From Escherichia coli (GTDB lineage Bacteria; Pseudomonadota; Gammaproteobacteria; Enterobacterales; Enterobacteriaceae), in NCBI RefSeq assembly GCF_041248615.1, contig NZ_CP158426.1: a stretch of DNA of 64,000 bases. One strand, given 5' to 3'. Shown piece by piece: positions 3,228 to 40,760 of this stretch (position 1 is the first letter of the stretch; every line of letters starts with the position of its first letter). The notes beneath the pieces were generated by a model, which made no database searches, was not told the DNA's origin, and was given only the letters and a program-made list of their open reading frames with translations. The translations under genes were made by a program, and so were the position numbers.

Positions 3228-4373
3228 ATGATATTATCATTACAATATATTAGAGGAATAGCATCATTACTTGTTGTTTTATTCCACTTCAGATTCTTGC
3301 TAAATGAGCACTACTCTCAGAAAGATTTGGGTGACCTATTATTTGGGAATGGGCTGTCTGGAGTTGATATATTCTTCATATTAAGTGGATTTATCATCGT
3401 ATACTCAACAAGAAAGAAGGAAGTTAATGATACTTTCTCATTCTCAATTAGAAGAATATTTAGAATATACCCATTACTAATCACATGCTGTTGCATGTAT
3501 TACATAATAAACACTCAATTTCTAACCTATGCTACAGTTGAAAACTTTAGAACCTTACTTATTTCCATCATTCCATTAAATATAAACTGGAATGAAGGCG
3601 CTCCATTCTTTGCCTATAATCTTTTGTACCCGGCCTGGACGATAACATATGAAATTGGTTTCTATGTTTTTTTCGGGGTATCAATGTCTATTTCGCATAA
3701 ATACAGAACAATTATCTGTTCTGTTTTTATAATCATGGTGGTCTCATTTACACAATACTATGTAAATGGAAATATATCATTTTCAGGTGATGTTAGTGCA
3801 GGGTTATTTACAGATAACTGGTTATTAGGATATACAAATGTTATTACATCTCCAATGATGTATGAATTCGTTATTGGGATGTTTCTTTCTGAAATATTTA
3901 CAAACATCAACGAAAGCAAAAGTATTAAAAGGATACTTTCAAAGTATTCGCTTCAAATACTATGGATTTCATGTGGTATATCCATAATATTATTCATTAT
4001 CCAGCGACCTTATGGGCATGGATTGAATGGATTTGGGACTATGGCGATGATACTTATTGCATCATCATTAGTATATGAATACTGCAATATAACACCCAAA
4101 ATAAAAATATTTAATTTCCTTGGTGAAATATCATATTCTTTATATCTAATTCACGCCGTGATACTTGCTTTGTTCTTCTATTATAAGGCAGACCTTGCTG
4201 AAATTGGCATAACTGGTGGATTTTCTGTGTTTTTTTCCTTGGTTATTATCTCAATAACTGCATCATATCCAATATATATTCTCATTGAAAAGCCAATGAT
4301 AAATATAGGTAAACGTTTAATTGACAAGAGAAATAAGAGCATTAACAAAAAAGAAACCGAAATAACAGCGTGA
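3228..4373 (+). CDS. integral membrane acyltransferase, family 3 (putative O-antigen/polysaccharide O-acetyltransferase)
   Basis: Very hydrophobic multi-TM protein; N-terminal R/H motif YIRGIASLLVVLFH typical of acyltransferase family 3; ATG at 3228 chosen over the track's TTG at 3198; AT-rich codon usage. Confidence 0.7.
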   Translation: MILSLQYIRGIASLLVVLFHFRFLLNEHYSQKDLGDLLFGNGLSGVDIFFILSGFIIVYSTRKKEVNDTFSFSIRRIFRIYPLLITCCCMYYIINTQFLTYATVENFRTLLISIIPLNINWNEGAPFFAYNLLYPAWTITYEIGFYVFFGVSMSISHKYRTIICSVFIIMVVSFTQYYVNGNISFSGDVSAGLFTDNWLLGYTNVITSPMMYEFVIGMFLSEIFTNINESKSIKRILSKYSLQILWISCGISIILFIIQRPYGHGLNGFGTMAMILIASSLVYEYCNITPKIKIFNFLGEISYSLYLIHAVILALFFYYKADLAEIGITGGFSVFFSLVIISITASYPIYILIEKPMINIGKRLIDKRNKSINKKETEITA

Positions 4374-4410
4374 TAATGACAAAGTTAGTGCCGGGATACC
4401 CCGGCACTAT

Positions 4411-5748
4411 TTAATCTATTTCGTAAGTGACAGTGATTATCACTTCTGCATTATTACCCAAAACATTTTGATATATATTCATATTACCTGATAATGTAGT
4501 TGCTCCAGTAAGAGTTATATAACTACTATTTGCATCAACCCTTGGAAGTAAAGCGGTAACTGCTGTTGTTAAATTATTATAGTAGCCTGTACTTCCAACA
4601 TATGCAGCTTTATTGCTTGATACATATGGTAACCCTCCAATTCTGAAACCATCTCCTGACCCAATTAAAGTTATACCAAGGTGACATGTTGCCGTTATGA
4701 TATTGCCACTCCTGACATAATTTCCTTTCTGCTGATAATATGTGGCATTACCACCTACAGTCGGAATCCAAACTCCAGTTTCTATATCACCACATGACCA
4801 GTCTTCTGCTGTTGTTAGTTTTCCAGTAACAATAAATTTACTTCCACCACCAGAATTATAAGGAACAAAAATTGGATTTATTCTTGCATAAGTGTTACCG
4901 GTCTGCTCATTAAGATCATTTCTATCAATAAGAACTTGACCATTTTCGAAGTTTGAAATCTGGCAGTCTGTTACACTCCAGTCTCTTAACTTCACATCAG
5001 CATCCATGACACCAATAAGCTTACCAGCATTACCAATTTTTTCTTTATGCATATTTACATACACATTTCTTACCGTAACAGACTGAGGGAACAGATAATT
5101 AGCAGGATTAGTTTTATCACTTAAAACAGATATTACCCAAGGTCTGTATTGAGTACTTACTTCACAATAAAATCCATCAATAAGCGTTCCAGATGCCGCT
5201 GGCCCAAGTAGTATTCCACCTGTAGAGTGATGCGCACTACCTCCAATTACTCTCCCCTTAACGCAGTTAATATAGGCAAAACATCCTAAATCTTGATTGT
5301 CATAGGCTGACATAGCACAGTCTCTAACTGTTACTCGAGAATTTCCTCCGTCATAAGCTGAGCCATCAGTTTTCTTACCAACTATTGATATAAAGTTACC
5401 AATAGCAACTCGACTATAAAAAGTTTTTTTATAACACCCCTCAATTAAAATATCCCAGTTTTCAAACTGAGCATATATATCATAAATGCTGGCATTCCCA
5501 TAATCTATGAAATCACAATATCTTATTTTCGGCGTATAAACGGCACTTTTTATCTTTATACCACCTAATGCTCTCTCCCCACCTGTGAATCTAATGCCAG
5601 TAACGGTGTAATCGCCTTGATAGAAATTATCTGCGGTAGGATTATTTTCGTCAGAATCATCACCCAATATAATAGCAAATTCACTCCCTGAATAATTAAT
5701 TGTCGCCCCCTTATTTGAATATATAGTTACAGGTCTTATAAACTCCAA
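4411..5748 (-). CDS. beta-helix-like protein of unknown function (possible tailspike/depolymerase-like domain); lacks an ATG start, possibly frameshifted or truncated
   Basis: 445-codon ORF whose first codon is TTG; Gly/Asn/Thr/Val-rich repetitive sequence; in-frame upstream TGA; upstream out-of-frame ATG (5831) separated by an A7/T7 tract. Confidence 0.45.
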   Translation of the reverse strand: MEFIRPVTIYSNKGATINYSGSEFAIILGDDSDENNPTADNFYQGDYTVTGIRFTGGERALGGIKIKSAVYTPKIRYCDFIDYGNASIYDIYAQFENWDILIEGCYKKTFYSRVAIGNFISIVGKKTDGSAYDGGNSRVTVRDCAMSAYDNQDLGCFAYINCVKGRVIGGSAHHSTGGILLGPAASGTLIDGFYCEVSTQYRPWVISVLSDKTNPANYLFPQSVTVRNVYVNMHKEKIGNAGKLIGVMDADVKLRDWSVTDCQISNFENGQVLIDRNDLNEQTGNTYARINPIFVPYNSGGGSKFIVTGKLTTAEDWSCGDIETGVWIPTVGGNATYYQQKGNYVRSGNIITATCHLGITLIGSGDGFRIGGLPYVSSNKAAYVGSTGYYNNLTTAVTALLPRVDANSSYITLTGATTLSGNMNIYQNVLGNNAEVIITVTYEID

Positions 5749-6140
5749 AGAATTACTTATCAGATACTCTCCATAAGGAAAAAAATCTCAACTGGTGGTG
5801 AGTACTTTGGTCTGGAGTTTACGTAATTCATAATATTGATTACACCAACATCATAGATAATCGCCACCTTCTGGCGAGGAGCTCCTGATGCAATTAATCG
5901 CCAGGCCTACGCCCATTATTCATGGGTAAATTTTGGACGGAGCCCCCAATTCCATCCTCAATTCTCCCTCGCACTGAGGAGTAGTAAGTGCAATTATTTA
6001 AAAAATCGCAAACAGAATATTATCATTTATTCTTGCATTCTGTTAATTAAAACCACACATAAAAACGTTGATACTTGATAAGTAAGTAGAGTATTATTAA
6101 TGGTTTTAATAACGAACCTTTTAATCATGAGAAGCCTCAA

Positions 6141-7166
6141 ATGACTAGTACCAATAACATAACAAGAAAAAAAATGGATGGAGTAACAATCTTAAGATTT
6201 ATAGCTGCTTTTTATGTGTTTATTTTTCACATTAACATGAGAGTCCCCGTTAATTTTGGAGAGCTTATTAATAAAACCATTAGCAATGGCGTCATTGGCA
6301 TGAGTATTTTCTTCATGCTTTCTGGTTTTGTTTTGACTTATAATTACTATGGTTCCTTGTCAAACAATTACTTCAGGAAGCGAATAGCAAGAATATTTCC
6401 AGCCTATTTATTTTGTGGGCTTTTAACCCTCCCATTTTTGTTATCCAGCGATGCAAGCTTTTTAAAAATGATTGCAAGCATATTCTTGTTTGTTACTGGA
6501 ATGCAATCATGGATTTATCAGACCTTCGATTTTTGGAATTTTAGCGGTACCTGGTCAATATCAGTGGAATTGTTTTTTTATGCCCTGTTTCCATTTTTGA
6601 TAAAAAACATCAACAAAAACAATGTAATTTATGTTTTACTTTTTTCATATTTATCTTCAGCATTATTAATCCCATTATCTGATATAATTCAGGGACCTGT
6701 AGTTTGGTCCGTATATTACGCAACTCCAATATACAGGTTACCAGAATTTGTGGTGGGCGTCTGTATCGCAATACTTTTTTTAAATGGCTATCGTGTTAAC
6801 CATTATACATGGCTATTAAGCATTTTATTATTTCTGTATGCTACCACCCAGCAAAACAATAACTCCATGGGGGTGAACTATCTCACAATTCCTGCGATAT
6901 CAATTATGTTATTGCACCTGGCAAAAATCAACATCAAAAACAACATTGCAAACAGAGCGATCATTTACTTTGGAGATATAAGTTATTCGTTTTATTTGAT
7001 GCAATTACCTATATTATATTACCTGGATCATAATAAAAACTCATTTATTCTTAACTATGGTCTTTTTAGCTGGCTTGTACTTTTTGTTATTAATACTGCA
7101 ATGGCATCATTATCTTATCACTTTCTGGAGAAGAACGATAAAATCAGAAAAATAATTACATCCTGA
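6141..7166 (+). CDS. integral membrane acyltransferase, family 3 (second copy, divergent sequence)
   Basis: 341-aa hydrophobic protein with motif ILRFIAAFYVFIFH; AT-rich. Confidence 0.7.
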   Translation: MTSTNNITRKKMDGVTILRFIAAFYVFIFHINMRVPVNFGELINKTISNGVIGMSIFFMLSGFVLTYNYYGSLSNNYFRKRIARIFPAYLFCGLLTLPFLLSSDASFLKMIASIFLFVTGMQSWIYQTFDFWNFSGTWSISVELFFYALFPFLIKNINKNNVIYVLLFSYLSSALLIPLSDIIQGPVVWSVYYATPIYRLPEFVVGVCIAILFLNGYRVNHYTWLLSILLFLYATTQQNNNSMGVNYLTIPAISIMLLHLAKINIKNNIANRAIIYFGDISYSFYLMQLPILYYLDHNKNSFILNYGLFSWLVLFVINTAMASLSYHFLEKNDKIRKIITS

Positions 7167-7167
7167 T

Positions 7168-29841: not shown

Positions 29842-29917
29842 TGGTGCTGGTTAACGGACTTGAACCGCTACCCATTCGCTTACAAGGCGACTGCTCTACC
29901 ATTGGAGCTAAACCAGC
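29842..29917 (-). tRNA. tRNA-like gene, anticodon UGU (Thr) by manual folding
   Basis: 76-nt cloverleaf: acceptor GCTGGTT/AACCAGC, D arm GCTC-CAATGGTA-GAGC, anticodon loop CTTGTAA (U33, A37), T arm AGCGG-TTCAAGT-CCGTT, 3' ACCA; one anticodon-stem mismatch. Confidence 0.55.
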
Positions 29918-29922
29918 ATGTT

Positions 29923-29997
29923 TGGCGGGACAGCGTGGACTCGAACCACGATAAGAAGGTTAACAGCCTTCCGTAATGACCTTTATACGACTGACCC
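29923..29997 (-). tRNA. tRNA-like gene, anticodon GUU (Asn), possibly degenerate
   Basis: Anticodon arm GAAGG-CTGTTAA-CCTTC and T arm CGTGG-TTCGAGT-CCACG are perfect; acceptor stem has one mismatch and the D stem is short. Confidence 0.45.
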
Positions 29998-34983: not shown

Positions 34984-35017
34984 AATGACTCCTGTGGATT
35001 GATCCAGTCTTTCTACA

Positions 35018-35296
35018 TCAGGCCTCAAAACTGTTGCAGCAGTCTTGAGGCTTTTCTTTTGTCAGCACCATGGCTACTTTCTTTGCTAGCTTTGCTAATT
35101 CCTCGTCTTCAACACCCCACTCCAGCACAGCCAGAAGCATGGCCATCTTTGGGATAAAGCTGTCTTTCCATCGCGAAATTTGCGATTCATTAATCCCTAA
35201 TGCATCAGCAACCTTTCGCTGACCACGTACAGCAATTCGATTCAGGATGTTGCTTGTGATTGCATTCGCTTTCTTGCGAGTACTTGTAAGTTGCAT
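35018..35296 (-). CDS. cII: CII transcriptional activator
   Basis: 92 aa from ATG at 35296 with RBS AAGGAAA; HTH ...ALGINESQISRWKDSFIPKMAMLLAVLEWGV resembles lambda CII. Confidence 0.75.
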   Translation of the reverse strand: MQLTSTRKKANAITSNILNRIAVRGQRKVADALGINESQISRWKDSFIPKMAMLLAVLEWGVEDEELAKLAKKVAMVLTKEKPQDCCNSFEA

Positions 35297-35352
35297 ATGT
35301 AAGTATTTCCTTAACAAATAAGAAGTTATACGCACCAACTGATGCGCGTTGT

Positions 35353-35398
35353 ATTCCCGCATTTCGGCGGGAATAAGGACCATGACTGTTAAAGAGCA
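35353..35398 (-). promoter_or_regulatory. nutR (boxA plus boxB hairpin)
   Basis: Reverse strand TGCTCTTTAACA (boxA-like) then hairpin TTCCCGCCGAAATGCGGGAA; same boxB sequence as nutL. Confidence 0.6.
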
Positions 35399-35404
35399 AT
35401 TTGC

Positions 35405-35590
35405 TTATGCCGCTTTGCGATAAGCACTTTCTTGATACTTCAGGGCGCCAGCTGTAACGACTTCCAGTCGATAGGCGTCTTTCTCTGGGATGACTTCCTT
35501 CCACTGAGAAACTGCTGCATCGCTAATGCCTAACGCTTTAGCTACCGCACGCTGGGTTCCGAAGTGGTCGATAACATCTTTCTTGTACAT
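35405..35590 (-). CDS. cro: Cro repressor
   Basis: 61 aa with HTH ...QRAVAKALGISDAAVSQW...; divergent from cI across the operator region. Confidence 0.7.
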   Translation of the reverse strand: MYKKDVIDHFGTQRAVAKALGISDAAVSQWKEVIPEKDAYRLEVVTAGALKYQESAYRKAA

Positions 35591-35670
35591 AGACTCGCTC
35601 CGAAATTAAAGAACACTTAAATTATCTATCAAAGGAATCTTAAGTCAAGTTTATTTAAGATGTCTTAACT
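35591..35670. promoter_or_regulatory. OR operator region with pR and pRM
   Basis: TTAA-centred inverted repeats (ATCTTAAGT...ATTTAAGAT); reverse-strand -35 TTGACT (35643..35648) and -10 ATAATT (35620..35625) with 17-bp spacing, upstream of cro. Confidence 0.6.
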
Positions 35671-36321
35671 ATGAATACACAACTGATGGGTGAGCGTATT
35701 CGCGCTCGCAGAAAAGAACTTAAGATTAGGCAGGCTGCCCTTGGCAAGATGGTTGGCGTGTCTAATGTTGCTATTTCCCAATGGGAGCGTTCTGAAACTG
35801 AGCCCAATGGCGAAAACCTATTGGCTTTAGCCAAGGCTTTACAGTGCTCCCCTGATTACTTGTTGAAAGGAGAAGATAGTCTTTCAAACATTGCCTATCA
35901 CAGCAGGCATGATCCAAGAGGTTCGTATCCTCTAATTAGTTGGGTAAGCGCAGGATGTTGGATGGAAGCTGTAGAGCCATATCATAAGCGTGCAATAGAT
36001 AACTGGTACGATACAACCGTAGATTGTTCAGAAGATTCGTTTTGGCTGGACGTAAAGGGTGATTCGATGACGGCTCCAGCCGGTCTTAGCATCCCGGAAG
36101 GGATGATAATACTAGTCGATCCTGAAGTAGAACCTCGTAATGGGAAGCTGGTAGTGGCAAAGCTCGAAGGAGAAAACGAGGCAACTTTCAAGAAGTTAGT
36201 TATTGATGCTGGCAGAAGGTTTCTAAAACCACTTAACCCACAATATCCGATGATTGAGATCAACGGGAACTGCAAAATCATCGGTGTAGTTGTCGATGCA
36301 AAAATAGCAAACCTTCCATAA
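35671..36321 (+). CDS. cI: CI repressor (HTH plus S24 LexA-like autopeptidase domain)
   Basis: 216 aa; N-terminal HTH ...QAALGKMVGVSNVAISQWER...; C-terminal domain ...GDSMTAPAGLSIPEGMIILVD...KIIGVVV resembles the 434/21-type repressor. Confidence 0.85.
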   Translation: MNTQLMGERIRARRKELKIRQAALGKMVGVSNVAISQWERSETEPNGENLLALAKALQCSPDYLLKGEDSLSNIAYHSRHDPRGSYPLISWVSAGCWMEAVEPYHKRAIDNWYDTTVDCSEDSFWLDVKGDSMTAPAGLSIPEGMIILVDPEVEPRNGKLVVAKLEGENEATFKKLVIDAGRRFLKPLNPQYPMIEINGNCKIIGVVVDAKIANLP

Positions 36322-36345
36322 GGGGCATTCGCCCCTTTTTTTCTT
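36321..36345 (+). terminator. rho-independent terminator after cI
   Basis: Hairpin AGGGGCATTCGCCCCT followed by TTTTTTT, overlapping the cI stop. Confidence 0.55.
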
Positions 36346-36365
36346 TCCTTTAAAAATCAAAGCAA

Positions 36366-36447
36366 AACTTAAACTTCGCAATAAAATTTAAGTTTTCTTC
36401 AAAAACACTCTTGACCAATAATTAAAGAAATCTTAAATTTAAGTCAT
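36366..36447. promoter_or_regulatory. OL operator region with pL
   Basis: Inverted repeats AAACTTAAA...TTTAAGTTT and perfect palindrome CTTAAATTTAAG; -35 TTGACC (36411..36416) and -10 TAAATT (36434..36439), 17-bp spacing, directed toward N. Confidence 0.55.
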
Positions 36448-36484
36448 CAGCAGGACGCTGGTAGCCAAACGGAACAGATTGGCA

Positions 36485-36527
36485 GGCTCTTTAACATTGA
36501 TGGGATTGTCCCGCCGAAATGCGGGAA
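36485..36527 (+). promoter_or_regulatory. nutL (boxA plus boxB hairpin)
   Basis: GCTCTTTAACA then hairpin TCCCGCCGAAATGCGGGA, upstream of N. Confidence 0.6.
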
Positions 36528-36633
36528 CCAAAGAGTAGTTGGCTTTGGGGTGACGTGAAGTGCAGCTGCACGACGGCAACCGGAAGATAAGCACCCGGCG
36601 CGTCACCGCCAAAGTCAATCATCGGAGGTCAAC

Positions 36634-36933
36634 ATGGCAGTAGTCATTACATATCTGGCTGACGATAACGCCAGAAATCGCCGCAGAGCACGCAGACAGG
36701 CTCAACGTGAACAGGCAATGCAAGAACAGCGACTGGCGCGAAAGATTGCGCTAAAGCTCTCTGGTTGCGTCAGAGCAGATAAAGCAGCATCACTCGGAAG
36801 CCTTCGCTGCAAGAAGGCAGAAGAGGTCGAGAGTAAACGGAATCGTATTTACTACCGCAAGCCACGCAGTGAAATGGGTGTGACTTGTGTTGGTCGCCAG
36901 AAAATGAAATTAGGCAGTAAGCCACTTATTTGA
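36634..36933 (+). CDS. N: antiterminator N (phage 21-like)
   Basis: 99 aa with N-terminal arginine-rich motif NARNRRRARRQAQRE and C-terminus ...YYRKPRSEMGVTCVGRQKMKLGSKPLI resembling N proteins. Confidence 0.75.
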   Translation: MAVVITYLADDNARNRRRARRQAQREQAMQEQRLARKIALKLSGCVRADKAASLGSLRCKKAEEVESKRNRIYYRKPRSEMGVTCVGRQKMKLGSKPLI

Positions 36934-36944
36934 GAGGAATTAAT

Positions 36945-37568
36945 ATGTCATCAATCCGCTTAACTACGAGAATGAAAGAGGAAATCGCTCGTAACGCTTT
37001 AATTAAGTCTGGGGTTTTCACTGAACTTGAAGAAGTAACAAAGTTAAAGAACCAGCTTGCACTTGACGCCAGAGTTATTGCGTTTGGCGGTAAAAAGAAA
37101 ACTGAGGAAGTGGATCAGTTATCATCCAAGTTGGTAGCTATAAGTGAAGAACTTGAAAAGATGGGATGTTCATTTTACTCATACGATGTTCGTTCTACTT
37201 CAATTTATCTGACTGTATCTGGCAGAAGGGTTGGATGGCTTTCATATGGGAAAGACGGCAACGGCGAAGATATATTGCTCCCTGCTCCGAACAAAGATAA
37301 ATGCATGTTTAGCGCAGAACACGAAATAACAAAAAGGTTTGATGAAATCTGCGCATTGCAACAAAAACTTGAAGCCAAGAAAAAGGATATCGAATCAAAT
37401 GTATGGGCTGCTTTGAACTCAGTCACAACAGTTAAGCGACTTATTGAAGTTTGGCCTGAAAGCAAAGAGTTGCTACCAAAAGAAGCAGATAAAGCAAGTA
37501 CAGCACTTCCTGCTTTACGGGTAGAAGATTTGAATAAGATGATTGGACTTCCTTCCGAGGCCGCATAG
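36945..37568 (+). CDS. hypothetical protein (207 aa) immediately downstream of N
   Basis: ATG at 36945 with RBS GAGAGGA; no motif I can assign; followed by a terminator. Confidence 0.5.
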   Translation: MSSIRLTTRMKEEIARNALIKSGVFTELEEVTKLKNQLALDARVIAFGGKKKTEEVDQLSSKLVAISEELEKMGCSFYSYDVRSTSIYLTVSGRRVGWLSYGKDGNGEDILLPAPNKDKCMFSAEHEITKRFDEICALQQKLEAKKKDIESNVWAALNSVTTVKRLIEVWPESKELLPKEADKASTALPALRVEDLNKMIGLPSEAA

Positions 37569-37584
37569 TCGGCCTTTATTTTTG
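37558..37584 (+). terminator. rho-independent terminator after the post-N gene
   Basis: Stem AGGCCG/CGGCCT with loop CATAGT followed by TTTATTTTT. Confidence 0.5.
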
Positions 37585-37605
37585 GCATAAACAACAGAGG
37601 TGAAT

Positions 37606-37740
37606 ATGAACGCAGTTGAATTTGCAAAATGGATGGCAGAGCAAGATATCACAGGAGCCGACGAAAAGGCTGTGTACTACATGGCTCTGCTATGGATTCA
37701 CAAAGCAAAAGAGGCTGCAAATGCTCTTGGAGGTGAGTGA
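37606..37740 (+). CDS. small hypothetical protein (44 aa)
   Basis: ATG at 37606 with RBS AGAGGTGA; stop overlaps the next ORF start. Confidence 0.35.
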   Translation: MNAVEFAKWMAEQDITGADEKAVYYMALLWIHKAKEAANALGGE

Positions 37741-37925
37741 TGTGCGAGTTTTATGAAGCAGATATCAAACGCCCAGAAATGGCAAGTGATGCGACATTAC
37801 GTGATTACTTCGCAGCAAAGTTCATGCAGGGAGTTTGTGCAAATCCAGACAGGCTTTATGACAACGAACCACTTGCTAAAGAAGCTTATGCGATGGCAGA
37901 CGCAATGCTCAAAGCTCGCGAATAA
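37740..37925 (+). CDS. small hypothetical protein (61 aa)
   Basis: ATG at 37740 overlapping the previous stop (ATGA-type coupling). Confidence 0.4.
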   Translation: MCEFYEADIKRPEMASDATLRDYFAAKFMQGVCANPDRLYDNEPLAKEAYAMADAMLKARE

Positions 37926-38059
37926 GCACTGTGTATTCATTCCAACGAGTGAATACACGGAGCAATGTCGCTCGTAACTAAACAGGAGCCGACTTGTTCT
38001 GATTATTTGAAATCTTCTTTGCCCTCCGATGTGAGGGCAATTTTTTTGATGGAGGATAT

Positions 38060-39025
38060 ATGAGTGAAGTAACAGATTTAGTTGTTATTGAAAAAGCAAA
38101 TGCAATGACTGTATTTCAGTCTGCCGACCAGATTGAAGAAATCCTTCAAAAGGTTGAACGTGAAGTTATGTCCTTTGTGCCTGATATCACAACGGCAAAG
38201 GGCAGAAAGGAGATCGCTTCTCTGGCGTATAAAGTTGCGCAGACGAAAACATATCTCGATGGTCTTGGCAAAGACCTTGTTGCTGAACTGAAGGAAATTC
38301 CAAAGCTAATTGATGCCAACCGCAAGACAGTGCGTGATCGCCTTGATGAGCTGAAAGCCAAGGCACGCCAGCCTCTTACTGATTATGAGGAAGAACAGGC
38401 GCGGATTAAAGCCGAAGAGGAAGCTAAGGCAGCAGCTGAAGCCCTCGCAAAGCAAATTGAGTCTGACCATGAAATAGCGATTTTGATGGATCGCGAATTT
38501 GACCGCAAAAGAGAAGAGGCAAGACTCAAAGTGGAGCAGGAAAAGCGAGAGCATGAAGAACTCTTAAAAAGAGAAGCTGAAGAGAAAGCCAGAGCAGAAG
38601 CCGAAGCAAAGGCAAAAGCCGAAATTGAAGCAGCAGCAAGGCGAGAAGCAGAAGCTAAGGCAGCAGCGGAACGTGCAGAGCGTGAACGCATTGAAGCCGA
38701 GCAACGAGCACAGCGCGAAGCAAAAGAGGCAGCAGAACGAGCTGAAAGAGAAAAGCAGGCAGCAATTGAAGCAGAACGCCGAAAAGCACAGGAGGAGGCT
38801 GAACGAATCCGTCGCGATGCTGAAGCAAAAGAGCAAGCCAGAATAGCAGAAGAAAAAAGAATCAAGGAAGAAGAGCGTAGAGCAAAGGATAAAGCTCACC
38901 GGAAAGAAGTAAATAACAAAATACTTGCTGACCTTATCAAGGTTGGCGCATCAGAAGATGTTGCTAAAAATATCATAACAGCCATCGTAAAAGGCGAAGT
39001 ATTCGCAACAAAAATAACCTACTAA
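38060..39025 (+). CDS. coiled-coil protein with E/K/A/R-rich low-complexity core, probable recombination-module component
   Basis: 321 aa; central ~150 aa of AEAKAKAEIEAAARREAEAKAAAERAER-type repeats; upstream of the Sak4-like ATPase. Confidence 0.5.
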   Translation: MSEVTDLVVIEKANAMTVFQSADQIEEILQKVEREVMSFVPDITTAKGRKEIASLAYKVAQTKTYLDGLGKDLVAELKEIPKLIDANRKTVRDRLDELKAKARQPLTDYEEEQARIKAEEEAKAAAEALAKQIESDHEIAILMDREFDRKREEARLKVEQEKREHEELLKREAEEKARAEAEAKAKAEIEAAARREAEAKAAAERAERERIEAEQRAQREAKEAAERAEREKQAAIEAERRKAQEEAERIRRDAEAKEQARIAEEKRIKEEERRAKDKAHRKEVNNKILADLIKVGASEDVAKNIITAIVKGEVFATKITY

Positions 39026-39049
39026 TAAAACCAACATAAGGAACCACCC

Positions 39050-39196
39050 ATGATTTACGCAATCGCGGGAGGCGCTCGCATGGGTGCCTTCCAACTAAAT
39101 GAATCTTTACTTGAACGAATCACCCGTAAATTACGTGACGGATGGAAACGCCTTATCGACATACTTAATCAGCCAGGAGTCCCCAAAAATGGATAA
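39050..39196 (+). CDS. small hypothetical protein (48 aa)
   Basis: ATG at 39050 with RBS AAGGAACC; below the ORF-track length cutoff. Confidence 0.3.
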   Translation: MIYAIAGGARMGAFQLNESLLERITRKLRDGWKRLIDILNQPGVPKNG

Positions 39197-39302
39197 AACA
39201 CTTATGGCTATCCAGACTAAATTCACTATCGCCGCTTTTATTGGCGATGAAAAGATGTTTCGTGAGGCCGTCGAAGCCTACAGAAAATGGAGGTCAAAAT
39301 GA
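39189..39302 (+). CDS. small hypothetical protein (37 aa)
   Basis: ATG at 39189, in frame with track ORF 39099..39302. Confidence 0.25.
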   Translation: MDKTLMAIQTKFTIAAFIGDEKMFREAVEAYRKWRSK

Positions 39303-39487
39303 TTCCGGTAGAACTGGCGAAAACTCCAGAGTTAAGTCGATTAAAAAGAGAATATCACATTGCTGAGGCTCGTTACTGGCGTAAAGCGGGAGATAAATCA
39401 AAGAAACAACTTTGCTTATGGCAGGCACAAAGAGAGCGCATGAATGAGCGTGAGTTTCTTTCCTCCCCATCCGAATTACCATTCTGA
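39299..39487 (+). CDS. small hypothetical protein (62 aa)
   Basis: ATG at 39299 (MIPVELAKTPELSRLKREYH...), overlaps previous stop. Confidence 0.35.
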   Translation: MIPVELAKTPELSRLKREYHIAEARYWRKAGDKSKKQLCLWQAQRERMNEREFLSSPSELPF

Positions 39488-39495
39488 GGCAAATT

Positions 39496-40176
39496 ATGGG
39501 AACTGCGACATTAATACTCGGTGAATCTGGCACCGGAAAATCAACCAGCATGAGAAATATCAATCCAGAGGAAGCAATACTTATAAAACCAATAGGCAAG
39601 CCGCTTCCATTTAAATCAAAAGACTGGCTGGCATGGGATGCCAGAGCAAAAAAAGGAACCGTAGTTACCACTGACAAATGGGACGTAATAGTTGCCGTAA
39701 TTAAGCGTGCTCACGAATACGGGAAAAGAATCGTTATTGTTGATGACTTCCAGTATGTGATGAGCAATGAGTTTATGCGCCGCTCAGAAGAAAAATCGTT
39801 TGATAAATTCACTGAGATAGGCCGCCACGCATGGGAGGTGATTAAGGCTGCACAGGATGCACCTGATGACCTGAGAGTCTATTTTCTTGCGCACACCGAA
39901 GAAACCCCTATGGGGCGTGTGAAAATGAAGACTATCGGCAAAATGCTGGACGAGAAAATCACTGTCGAAGGCATGTTTACTATAGTTCTTCGCACCCTTA
40001 CCCGCGATGACCAGTTCTTTTTCACCACGAAAAACAACGGTGCAGACACTGTTAAATCCCCAATGGGAATGTTTGATTCTAATGAGATTGATAACGATCT
40101 CTCTTTCGTCGATGCCACTGTTTGTGATTACTACGGCATCAATAATGTTCATCAAATTAAGGAAAACGCCGCATGA
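39496..40176 (+). CDS. Sak4-like RecA-fold ATPase (phage single-strand annealing/recombination protein)
   Basis: 226 aa; Walker A LILGESGTGKST near the N-terminus and Walker B-like IVIVDD; size and position match Sak4-type recombinases. Confidence 0.65.
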   Translation: MGTATLILGESGTGKSTSMRNINPEEAILIKPIGKPLPFKSKDWLAWDARAKKGTVVTTDKWDVIVAVIKRAHEYGKRIVIVDDFQYVMSNEFMRRSEEKSFDKFTEIGRHAWEVIKAAQDAPDDLRVYFLAHTEETPMGRVKMKTIGKMLDEKITVEGMFTIVLRTLTRDDQFFFTTKNNGADTVKSPMGMFDSNEIDNDLSFVDATVCDYYGINNVHQIKENAA

Positions 40177-40760
40177 GCAACGTGATTTTTACTTATAACG
40201 AAGAAGCAGCACTGACCGCAGGGCAAGGTGGTTTTATTAACGAAACTGGTGCTCATATCATTACCATTACTGAAGCAGAACTAAAGCAATCAGAAAAAGG
40301 AGCCAAATTTATTGAGTTTTCTGGCGAATCTGACGACGGACGTAAAATCCAATATCTTAGCGTCTGTGTTCAGAAAAATGACGGAACGGAAAACAAATTT
40401 GGCGCAAATGTCGTTCACGCCATGATGGGGTGTGCCGGGATTGGACAATTAACGCAACATATGGTTTCCGCCAGTAAATTTGTTGCTCCTGAGTTTCATG
40501 GAAAGAAAATCGGGTTAGTGCTCCAGAAAGTATTAACCACAAACAAAAAGACTGGCGCAGACAGCTACCAGATGGAAATACGCATCCCGTTTATTGCACA
40601 AACAGGTCAAACCCTTAAAGAAAAGGCGGAAGGCAAGCAACCAGAAACTATCGCCAACATGGTTGCCAGCCTCAAAGATAAAGACAATCGCTCTAAAAAC
40701 GTAAGCCAGAATCATGCAGATGATTATGGTTACAGCCAGAACGATTACCCTCCATTCTAG
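40173..40760 (+). CDS. putative single-stranded DNA-binding partner protein with SSB-like acidic C-terminal tail
   Basis: 195 aa ending ...HADDYGYSQNDYPPF, resembling the SSB C-terminal tip (DDDIPF); coupled to the Sak4-like gene. Confidence 0.5.
   Translation: MSNVIFTYNEEAALTAGQGGFINETGAHIITITEAELKQSEKGAKFIEFSGESDDGRKIQYLSVCVQKNDGTENKFGANVVHAMMGCAGIGQLTQHMVSASKFVAPEFHGKKIGLVLQKVLTTNKKTGADSYQMEIRIPFIAQTGQTLKEKAEGKQPETIANMVASLKDKDNRSKNVSQNHADDYGYSQNDYPPF

Follow-up and report, generated by a model that had tools for sequence, protein, structure and literature searches.

An Nmad5-family gene directly behind N in a lambdoid prophage of Escherichia coli: family identity, early-operon setting and possible role

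Which function is carried in the slot behind the antiterminator gene N of a lambdoid prophage is the question raised by a 64,000-nucleotide (nt) stretch of the Escherichia coli contig NZ_CP158426.1 (assembly GCF_041248615.1; the whole stretch is hereafter called the window, and positions are counted from its first letter). The slot is filled by an open reading frame (ORF) of 207 amino acids (aa) at 36945–37568; the original prediction, made from the letters of the window alone, had taken it for a candidate exclusion or host-modulation gene of an undescribed kind. The protein is a full-length member of the named, already annotated Nmad5 family and is not new. As to its role, that of an immediate-early, dispensable, non-enzymatic binding protein, which would act in DNA metabolism and/or host takeover through its C-terminal surface, is favoured at a rough probability of 0.45.

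The reading frame and its family

The ORF was intact on the + strand from its ATG to a TAG (37566–37568) and lies right after N, as originally described; N itself was identified by its match to phrog_271 (Table 1). The Shine-Dalgarno GAGG abuts the TGA of N (36931–36933). Homologues begin at the equivalent Met (MSSIRLT, MTSIRLT or MTVRLT) and, since this start is shared by them, the TTG-started 212-aa version returned by the ORF tool was rejected. The ORF is a real, functional gene under purifying selection: it was intact in 78 of 80 closely related viral contigs; the median pairwise ratio of nonsynonymous to synonymous substitution rates (dN/dS) among close relatives was 0.31; variable sites per codon position were 44/33/76. 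An antisense 140-aa ORF (37205–37627) was dismissed on the dN/dS and codon-position variation in the Nmad5 frame. The gene was AT-richer than N, as had been noted (GC 0.404 versus 0.497; prophage, 0.476). Predicted properties of the protein were: maximal 19-residue Kyte-Doolittle hydropathy 0.61, grand average of hydropathy −0.33, isoelectric point 6.65, 23.1 kDa; no membrane segment was predicted, and the earlier description of a soluble protein agrees with these values, by which solubility is predicted. The charge is neutral (32 Asp + Glu, 32 Lys + Arg).

The Pfam model Nmad5 (PF18757) was matched end to end (E = 1.7e-71, score 241; residues 4–203 against model positions 1–206 of 206), phrog_1965 (PHROG 1965, function unknown) was matched with E = 4e-83, and the 100% identical RefSeq protein WP_192459754 bears the name "Nmad5 family putative nucleotide modification protein"; PF18757 hits were found precomputed for all 71 close homologues. 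The statement that the protein has no recognisable motif is refuted by the Pfam match and the RefSeq annotation, and its novelty was overstated by the word "undescribed", since the gene falls in a named and annotated family. Nmad5 stands for "nucleotide modification associated domain 5", and the naming rests on neighbourhoods with nucleotide- or base-modifying enzymes. The name reportedly goes back to Iyer et al. in 2013.

The complete gene was found in 208 of 5426 complete E. coli genomes. At 90% nt identity or more, 255 phage records matched this region, among them Shiga toxin (Stx) phages (Stx1a- and Stx2a-converting), mEp235, HK542, HK244 and Kapi1. An exhaustive HMMER search gave about 880 clusters (50% identity) at E ≤ 1e-3, nearly all of them single-domain proteins of about 200 aa; the family occurs in Stx, HK, mEp, N4-like, Dhillonvirus, Vibrio and thymidine-hypermodifying phages. 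No match was returned by an NCBIfam search with the window protein, and none of the PADLOC-DB defence families was matched at E ≤ 0.1. The "NMAD" domain of DefensePredictor, part of a validated defence system, was set aside, being Nmad2 and not Nmad5. In the searchable literature nothing was found on this gene, nor an experimental assignment of it in DNA or nucleotide modification; the only functional data found there concern a Dhillonvirus homologue and are considered below.

The leftward operon and its first terminator

The window holds a lambdoid prophage at the attLambda locus, between bioA/ybhB and ybhC. The order of genes was: cro and cII (− strand); a LexA/cI-type repressor gene (+ strand) with a terminator; a pL-like promoter; N; the Nmad5 gene; a terminator-like site; two small ORFs, a 321-aa coiled-coil protein, cIII and kil; a Sak4-like ATPase, a single-stranded-DNA-binding (SSB)-like protein, an anti-RecBCD protein, then xis and int. 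By its place between the repressor gene and N, the promoter would correspond to lambda pL. The exact boxA was present in two copies in the 64-kb window, one behind the pL-like promoter and one on the − strand between cro and cII, the position of lambda nutR; by analogy with lambda the two may be assigned to nutL and nutR. A consensus scan from pL to 37557, by which weak promoters may be missed, gave no further promoter-like site and no terminator-like site on the + strand; an Rfam scan of 35000–39500 gave no RNA family. Because N and Nmad5 are spaced by 11 nt and neither a promoter nor a terminator intervenes, the gene was placed in the pL transcript, as the probable second cistron of an immediate-early pL-nutL-N transcript. 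The claim that the gene forms a discrete unit held in one sense, that of a mosaic cassette ending in a terminator (below); as a separate transcription unit it was not upheld, the gene starting just 11 nt past N and the stretch from pL to its stop codon showing neither a promoter-like nor a terminator-like site.

The G+C-rich hairpin and directly following U-run of an intrinsic terminator were found over the gene's end (Table 1). By the consensus scan the hairpin spans 37557–37576 and is followed by TATTTTTGG; it consists of a 7-base-pair (bp) stem with five G-C pairs, a 6-nt loop that holds the stop codon, and the tail TTTATTTTT. The folding energy of the hairpin alone was −11.0 kcal/mol, that of the hairpin behind cI −11.8 and that of a hairpin at 38019 −13.0 kcal/mol; of the "strong hairpin plus T-run terminator" that had been announced, the structure is present, and "strong" is somewhat generous at −11.0 kcal/mol. 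In homologues about 57% identical in protein (loci L111, L113, L115, L121, L148 and others) the stop-overlapping hairpin and T-run are kept, in the stretch from about 11 nt before to 30 nt after the stop codon, with one stem pair varying between C-G, U·G and U-A; this is moderate evidence for structural constraint, and just moderate because the 5' arm of the hairpin is coding. A detectable terminator followed the gene in 11 of 44 homologue loci versus 9% of control windows. In lambda, the terminator tL1 directly follows N. The hairpin of the window is probably the first terminator of the pL operon, a tL1 analogue, rather than a private terminator of the Nmad5 gene.

The operon setting bears directly on the proposal that the prophage expresses this gene as a superinfection-exclusion or abortive-infection protein. 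Lambdoid immunity-region neighbourhoods house exclusion genes (rexAB and sieB lie around the immunity genes), and the gene is horizontally mobile, with an AT content above that of its neighbours. It is situated, however, inside the repressed pL operon, 11 nt past N and with no promoter-like site from pL to its ATG in the consensus scan; because this operon is controlled by the repressor and the gene has no promoter of its own, expression in the lysogen is unlikely. SieB and RexB are membrane proteins, and neither of the two marks of rexAB- and sieB-type genes, transcription in the lysogen and membrane association, was found for the Nmad5 gene: no membrane segment is predicted, nor was a PADLOC profile matched. 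The family is moreover common in strictly virulent phages, in which exclusion based on a lysogen makes no sense. An exclusion function expressed from the lysogen, as originally suggested, is accordingly regarded as very improbable.

A mosaic cassette in varying neighbourhoods

The Nmad5 gene and a 41-nt element at its end form a mosaic cassette. The element consists of the terminator hairpin, the T-run and 13 more nt. In 68 of the 80 related viral contigs homology stops at 37598, the last position of the element, 30 nt past the stop codon and just short of the next gene; the left edge of homology in the same 80 contigs varies within the last ~90 nt of N. The 41 nt are identical in the window, in E. 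coli IHE3034, in enteropathogenic E. coli (EPEC) E2348/69 and in the Stx1 phage SH2026Stx1, four phages that differ in genes both upstream and downstream of the element, with three different cargoes in front of it. In about 263 complete E. coli genomes it occurs without the Nmad5 gene. At least five other cargoes precede it: ral together with a 140-aa gene, and genes of 156, 60, 107 and 285 aa; in EPEC E2348/69 its first two bases finish the stop codon of the unrelated 156-aa gene. The description of the place after N as a hotspot is borne out by this recurrence of one element behind varied cargoes in E. coli prophages. The gene ral, whose product modulates type I restriction-modification, stands directly 5' of Nmad5 in 8 of the 80 related contigs and in its stead in IHE3034. 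The 285-aa cargo (E. coli JNE082640, 1006–1863 of locus L178) matched PHROG 424 ("phosphoadenosine phosphosulfate reductase") in part, over positions 152–411, and gave no Pfam match.

The gene is dispensable in nature. In the Stx2a phage Stx2_716 (1049–3025 of locus L174) it is interrupted after codon ~37 by an IS3-family element that carries transposase ORFs of 108 and 296 aa on the opposite strand; 48 records of Stx2a-converting phages matched, and the split pattern was seen in all of those among the tblastn matches listed.

Neighbours were further compared in a divergent set of 39 viral contigs (Nmad5 27–58% identical). In 32 of them an S24-type repressor gene precedes Nmad5 in the same orientation, and in 9 an N-like gene is its direct upstream neighbour. 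The downstream recombination modules vary: RecT with a YqaJ-type exonuclease; Erf; Sak4 with SSB; a DnaQ-like exonuclease; or DUF2800 with a single-stranded-DNA-binding protein and PolA. A Red module is found downstream in the Stx1 phage, and Klebsiella and Providencia prophages fit the same picture. As the modules vary at a constant position, Nmad5 goes with the beginning of the early leftward operon and not with one recombinase. In the N4-like phages FSL SP-076 and KpCHEMY26 the order is PolA, thymidylate synthase (TS), Nmad5, a PD-(D/E)XK exonuclease, primase and a P-loop/Sak4-like ATPase, followed next in SP-076 by an annotated SSB gene; in Yuavirus LKO4 and cyanophage Pam3, Nmad5 lies between aGPT-Pplase1 and a TS-like hydroxymethylase. 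Other members adjoin primase or helicase genes, the replication protein O gene or small early genes; for distant members, most metagenome contigs were too short to show the neighbouring genes. The theme shared by these contexts is DNA replication, recombination and nucleotide metabolism, with base modification as one special case.

That special case is the ground for the proposal that Nmad5 is an accessory of base modification, which would recruit or regulate modifying enzymes on newly replicated DNA, possible partners being the Dam-like methyltransferase of the phage and enzymes of the host. The Pfam and RefSeq names of the family speak for it, as does the position in Yuavirus and Pam3, where Nmad5 sits in a thymidine-hypermodification cluster; it is also listed in the M6-like cassette (PMC9476957). 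A Dam-like N6-adenine methyltransferase is encoded in the nin region of the prophage itself, ~4.3 kb from Nmad5. A Dam-like gene was present within the fetched flank, however, in just 18 of 50 close and 12 of 31 divergent loci (~36–39%), and on this count an obligatory partnership was rejected. Modifying-enzyme neighbours were found in Yuavirus and Pam3 and not in the window prophage, the annotation of which holds no TS-like hydroxymethylase, 5-hydroxymethyldeoxyuridine DNA kinase or aGPT-Pplase; most members in the phage collection (lambdoid, Dhillonvirus, Vibrio, N4-like) likewise have no annotated thymidine-hypermodification gene nearby. In the reconstitution of thymidine hypermodification of M6 and ViI the steps described were given to a kinase, an aGPT-Pplase and, by prediction, a pyridoxal-phosphate and a radical S-adenosylmethionine enzyme, with Nmad5 unmentioned (PMC8989533). 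Neither an enzyme-like fold nor a conserved cluster of catalytic-type residues was found in the family (next section), and a part in base modification is considered improbable, less so than lysogenic exclusion.

Several neighbours within the window recur elsewhere. The product of the 62-aa ORF past the terminator corresponds by homology to the C-terminal portion of 76–169-aa proteins of the phrog_2201 type; such proteins follow Nmad5 in 9 of the 39 divergent prophages and are thus a recurrent neighbour. The 321-aa protein is extremely rich in Ala, Glu, Lys and Arg (AT skew to 0.75), and its homologues follow Nmad5 in 8 of the 39 divergent loci and are found in many early-left operons. In the N4-like SP-076, too, a pair of Sak4-like ATPase and SSB is met with a few genes past Nmad5.

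Two features farther away were recorded. Genes for tRNA-Thr(TGT) and tRNA-Asn(GTT) lie downstream of the Q antiterminator gene; phage tRNA-Thr(UGU) genes are described in a 2026 preprint as countering the tRNase OLD of P2 (10.64898/2026.07.10.737580), and by analogy the tRNA-Thr gene of the window might be a counter-defence element. At the prophage end, beside the tail-fibre genes, stand two acyltransferase-family genes, which may be morons for the modification of surface polysaccharide.

Table 1. Positions of the Nmad5 gene, its signals and other features of the window
Feature	Position	Strand	Basis or remark
pL-like sigma-70 promoter (TTGACC, 17-nt spacer, TAAATT)	36411–36439	+	Consensus scan; 3' of the cI-like repressor gene and terminator
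nutL-like site	36486–36526	+	boxA GCTCTTTAACA at 36486–36496, then 6-bp boxB-like hairpin at 36509–36526
N antiterminator, 99 aa	36634–36933	+	phrog_271 "anti-termination protein N-like", E = 8e-36
Shine-Dalgarno GAGG	36934–36937	+	7 nt 5' of the Nmad5 ATG; sequence read directly
Nmad5-family gene, 207 aa	36945–37568	+	Pfam PF18757, phrog_1965, RefSeq name, dN/dS, AlphaFold2
Intrinsic-terminator-like hairpin and T-run	37557–37585	+	GAGGCCG-CATAGT-CGGCCTT; probable tL1 analogue
Junction element, 41 nt, AGGCCGCATAGTCGGCCTTTATTTTTGGCATAAACAACAGA	37558–37598	+	Right-hand mosaic boundary of the cassette; single copy in the window
Second exact boxA (GCTCTTTAACA)	35387–35397	−	Between cro and cII
Repressor gene, cI-like	35671–36321	+	
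62-aa ORF	37737–37925		Homologous to proteins of the phrog_2201 type
321-aa protein, predicted coiled coil	38060–39025		phrog_1376; RefSeq "TolA"
Recombination module	39496–40760		Sak4-like P-loop ATPase (phrog_2872) and SSB-like partner (phrog_743)
tRNA-Thr(TGT) and tRNA-Asn(GTT)	29842–29997	−	
Two acyltransferase-family genes	~3229–7167		RefSeq annotation

Fold, Tmn escape and the proposed role

A confident AlphaFold2 model of the window protein was built from an alignment of 119 diverse Nmad5 members (predicted local distance difference test 90.7, predicted template modelling (TM) score 0.82). It comprises three N-terminal helices (8–72), a small beta-sheet (86–120), a long helix (127–158) and two short helices (163–176) followed by a low-confidence tail; overall, a helical bundle or coiled coil with a small sheet is predicted. 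Conserved residues are concentrated C-terminally, in TTVK(K/R)LLEVWPExxELLP and in LPAxxxxDLNxxIGLP of the flexible tail; nearly invariant in the 119 members were T162, L166, W170, P171, E172, L176, P178, P189, L196, N197 and G201, with N197 invariant. At the near-invariant positions G, P, W, L, T and N predominate and E occurs once, and no catalytic-type constellation of Asp, Glu, His or Cys is conserved across the 119. A sequence search of Protein Data Bank chains with the protein and with the 119-sequence profile gave coiled-coil noise only. The significant matches of a structure search of AFDB50 were all named as Nmad5 family members, which superposed with TM scores up to 0.95; informative fusions were not among them. 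Remote homology and structure prediction, the check that had been proposed, led to the family and to no solved structural relative. No enzyme-like fold was found among the relatives of the model. The predicted fold is concluded to be specific to the Nmad5 family; although such negative evidence is no proof, a binding function is more likely for the protein than a catalytic one.

Experimental data were found for the homologue of Dhillonvirus phages. Escape from the defence system Tmn was conferred by K216E (phage SM_A8) or K296E (phage SMS22) in "nmad5", and Tmn sensitivity returned when the mutation was reverted; the gene could be deleted and is dispensable there, and the wild-type gene could not be cloned, apparently because of toxicity (Yamashita et al. 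2025, PMC11846954). Deletion left the sensitivity to Tmn unchanged (PMC11846954), and for this reason the wild-type protein is not simply the trigger of Tmn or an anti-Tmn factor.

These data enter into the main rival of the favoured reading, with which it overlaps: dedicated counter-defence, in which Nmad5 would inhibit a host immune system (restriction, Tmn-like sensors or other) or serve as its decoy in the immediate-early phase, with timing like that of T7 Ocr and a position like that of lambda Ral. In its favour are the presence of ral elsewhere in the same N-proximal slot before the first terminator, and its abutting Nmad5 in some contigs; the dispensability of the gene and its mobility as a cassette; its moron-like location in Dhillonvirus, antisense to the flanking structural genes; and the escape from Tmn by a point mutation within the signature motif of a homologue (PMC11846954). 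Against it, a Dhillonvirus deprived of its separate anti-Tmn gene stays sensitive to Tmn in spite of nmad5, and deletion of nmad5 has no effect (PMC11846954); the defence profiles of PADLOC-DB gave no match; with its neutral charge the protein is no Ocr-like DNA mimic; and tight embedding in replication and nucleotide-metabolism modules, as in virulent phages, is atypical for a pure anti-defence gene. Dedicated counter-defence is rated as unlikely, while being the most credible of the rivals.

In the favoured reading, that of an early binding protein, pL, nutL, N, Nmad5 and the first terminator would make up the immediate-early leftward transcript. Nmad5 would be synthesised alongside N in the first minutes after infection or induction, ahead of the antitermination that gives access to the remainder of the operon, and no expression of it would be expected in the repressed lysogen. 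The protein would act by binding other proteins, without catalysis; the target may lie in DNA metabolism (replication, recombination, nucleotide supply) and/or in host takeover or immune sensing. The protein is probably neither a base-modification enzyme nor an exclusion protein expressed from the lysogen; a host-modulation or counter-defence role in lytic growth is plausible.

Several points weigh against this reading. Immediate-early expression hinges on a predicted terminator; the fold z-score of the hairpin in its context was just −1.0, in some close relatives the stem is imperfectly paired, and no terminator was detectable after the gene in homologues of ≤53% identity or in the Klebsiella loci L002–L005 (58%). 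The lack of a relative with an enzyme-like fold is negative evidence only. The target process is a guess based on the genes around Nmad5, which vary from one phage group to another. Some members are linked to thymidine hypermodification by the Yuavirus and Pam3 contexts and by the family name, which leaves some probability to a role connected with modification. The unchanged Tmn sensitivity of the Dhillonvirus nmad5 deletion belongs here as well (PMC11846954).

A bolder extension is put forward tentatively, with the odds judged to be against it: Nmad5 would be misnamed and would be a widespread non-enzymatic adaptor with a fold of its own, immediate-early in this lambdoid clade, which could dock by its conserved TTVK(K/R)LLxxWPE surface on the replication or recombination machinery or on host immune sensors, and the basic residue 165 of which would be the contact read by Tmn-type defences. 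Were such a replisome- or immunity-directed adaptor to be confirmed, the Nmad5 annotation would be corrected, the Tmn-escape mutation of Dhillonvirus would be explained, and one more would be added to the few lambdoid immediate-early functions; were the phenotype subtle, the gene would be another dispensable moron. A clean genetic test is easy, since near-identical copies, 97–98% identical, are carried by the K-12-plating phages mEp235 and HK542. The sequence itself holds no surprise for a specialist, and the gene's position in the lambda-type operon is unusually early; for a large family without a solved structural relative, the window offers a tractable setting in a pL operon.

Compared with known systems, the hairpin resembles lambda tL1 in its G+C-rich stem and T-run and as the first terminator-like site after pL-nutL-N, and differs from it in the 624-nt cargo gene that stands between N and the putative terminator and in the stop codon in the loop. 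Lambda Ral shares with Nmad5 the slot and the 41-nt element downstream, and is likewise early, non-essential and horizontally exchanged; the two are without sequence relationship (no homology of the window protein to lambda Ral, of the antirestriction family, was found), Ral being a separate ORF of 66 aa that can adjoin Nmad5. Within the Nmad5 family, the window protein is typical in length (~200 aa), predicted fold (TM 0.8–0.95 to AFDB members) and C-terminal signature; the nucleotide-modifying neighbours implied by the family name are absent around its gene, which follows N in an early operon of lambdoid type. T2 RIIB, a replisome-anchoring early protein, was reported in a 2026 preprint to trigger Tmn directly (PMC13001434). 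T4/T2 RIIB is thus, like Nmad5, an early phage protein genetically linked to Tmn, and its association with the replisome may be set beside the frequent location of Nmad5 in replication modules; RIIB associates with the membrane, Nmad5 has the predicted properties of a soluble protein, and a relationship of Nmad5 to T4 RIIB was rejected (hhalign probability 0.3%). The Dhillonvirus nmad5 product differs from the window protein in its length (at least 254 aa, with an insertion of ~50 residues in the beta region), in an identity of ~24–33% and in its setting, a virulent siphovirus in which the gene and the structural genes on either side are oppositely oriented; the 254-aa protein of SM_A8 is nevertheless homologous to the window protein over the full length (hhalign probability 98.8%), and its K216 aligns with R165 of the window protein in the shared signature TTVK(K/R)LLxxWPE.

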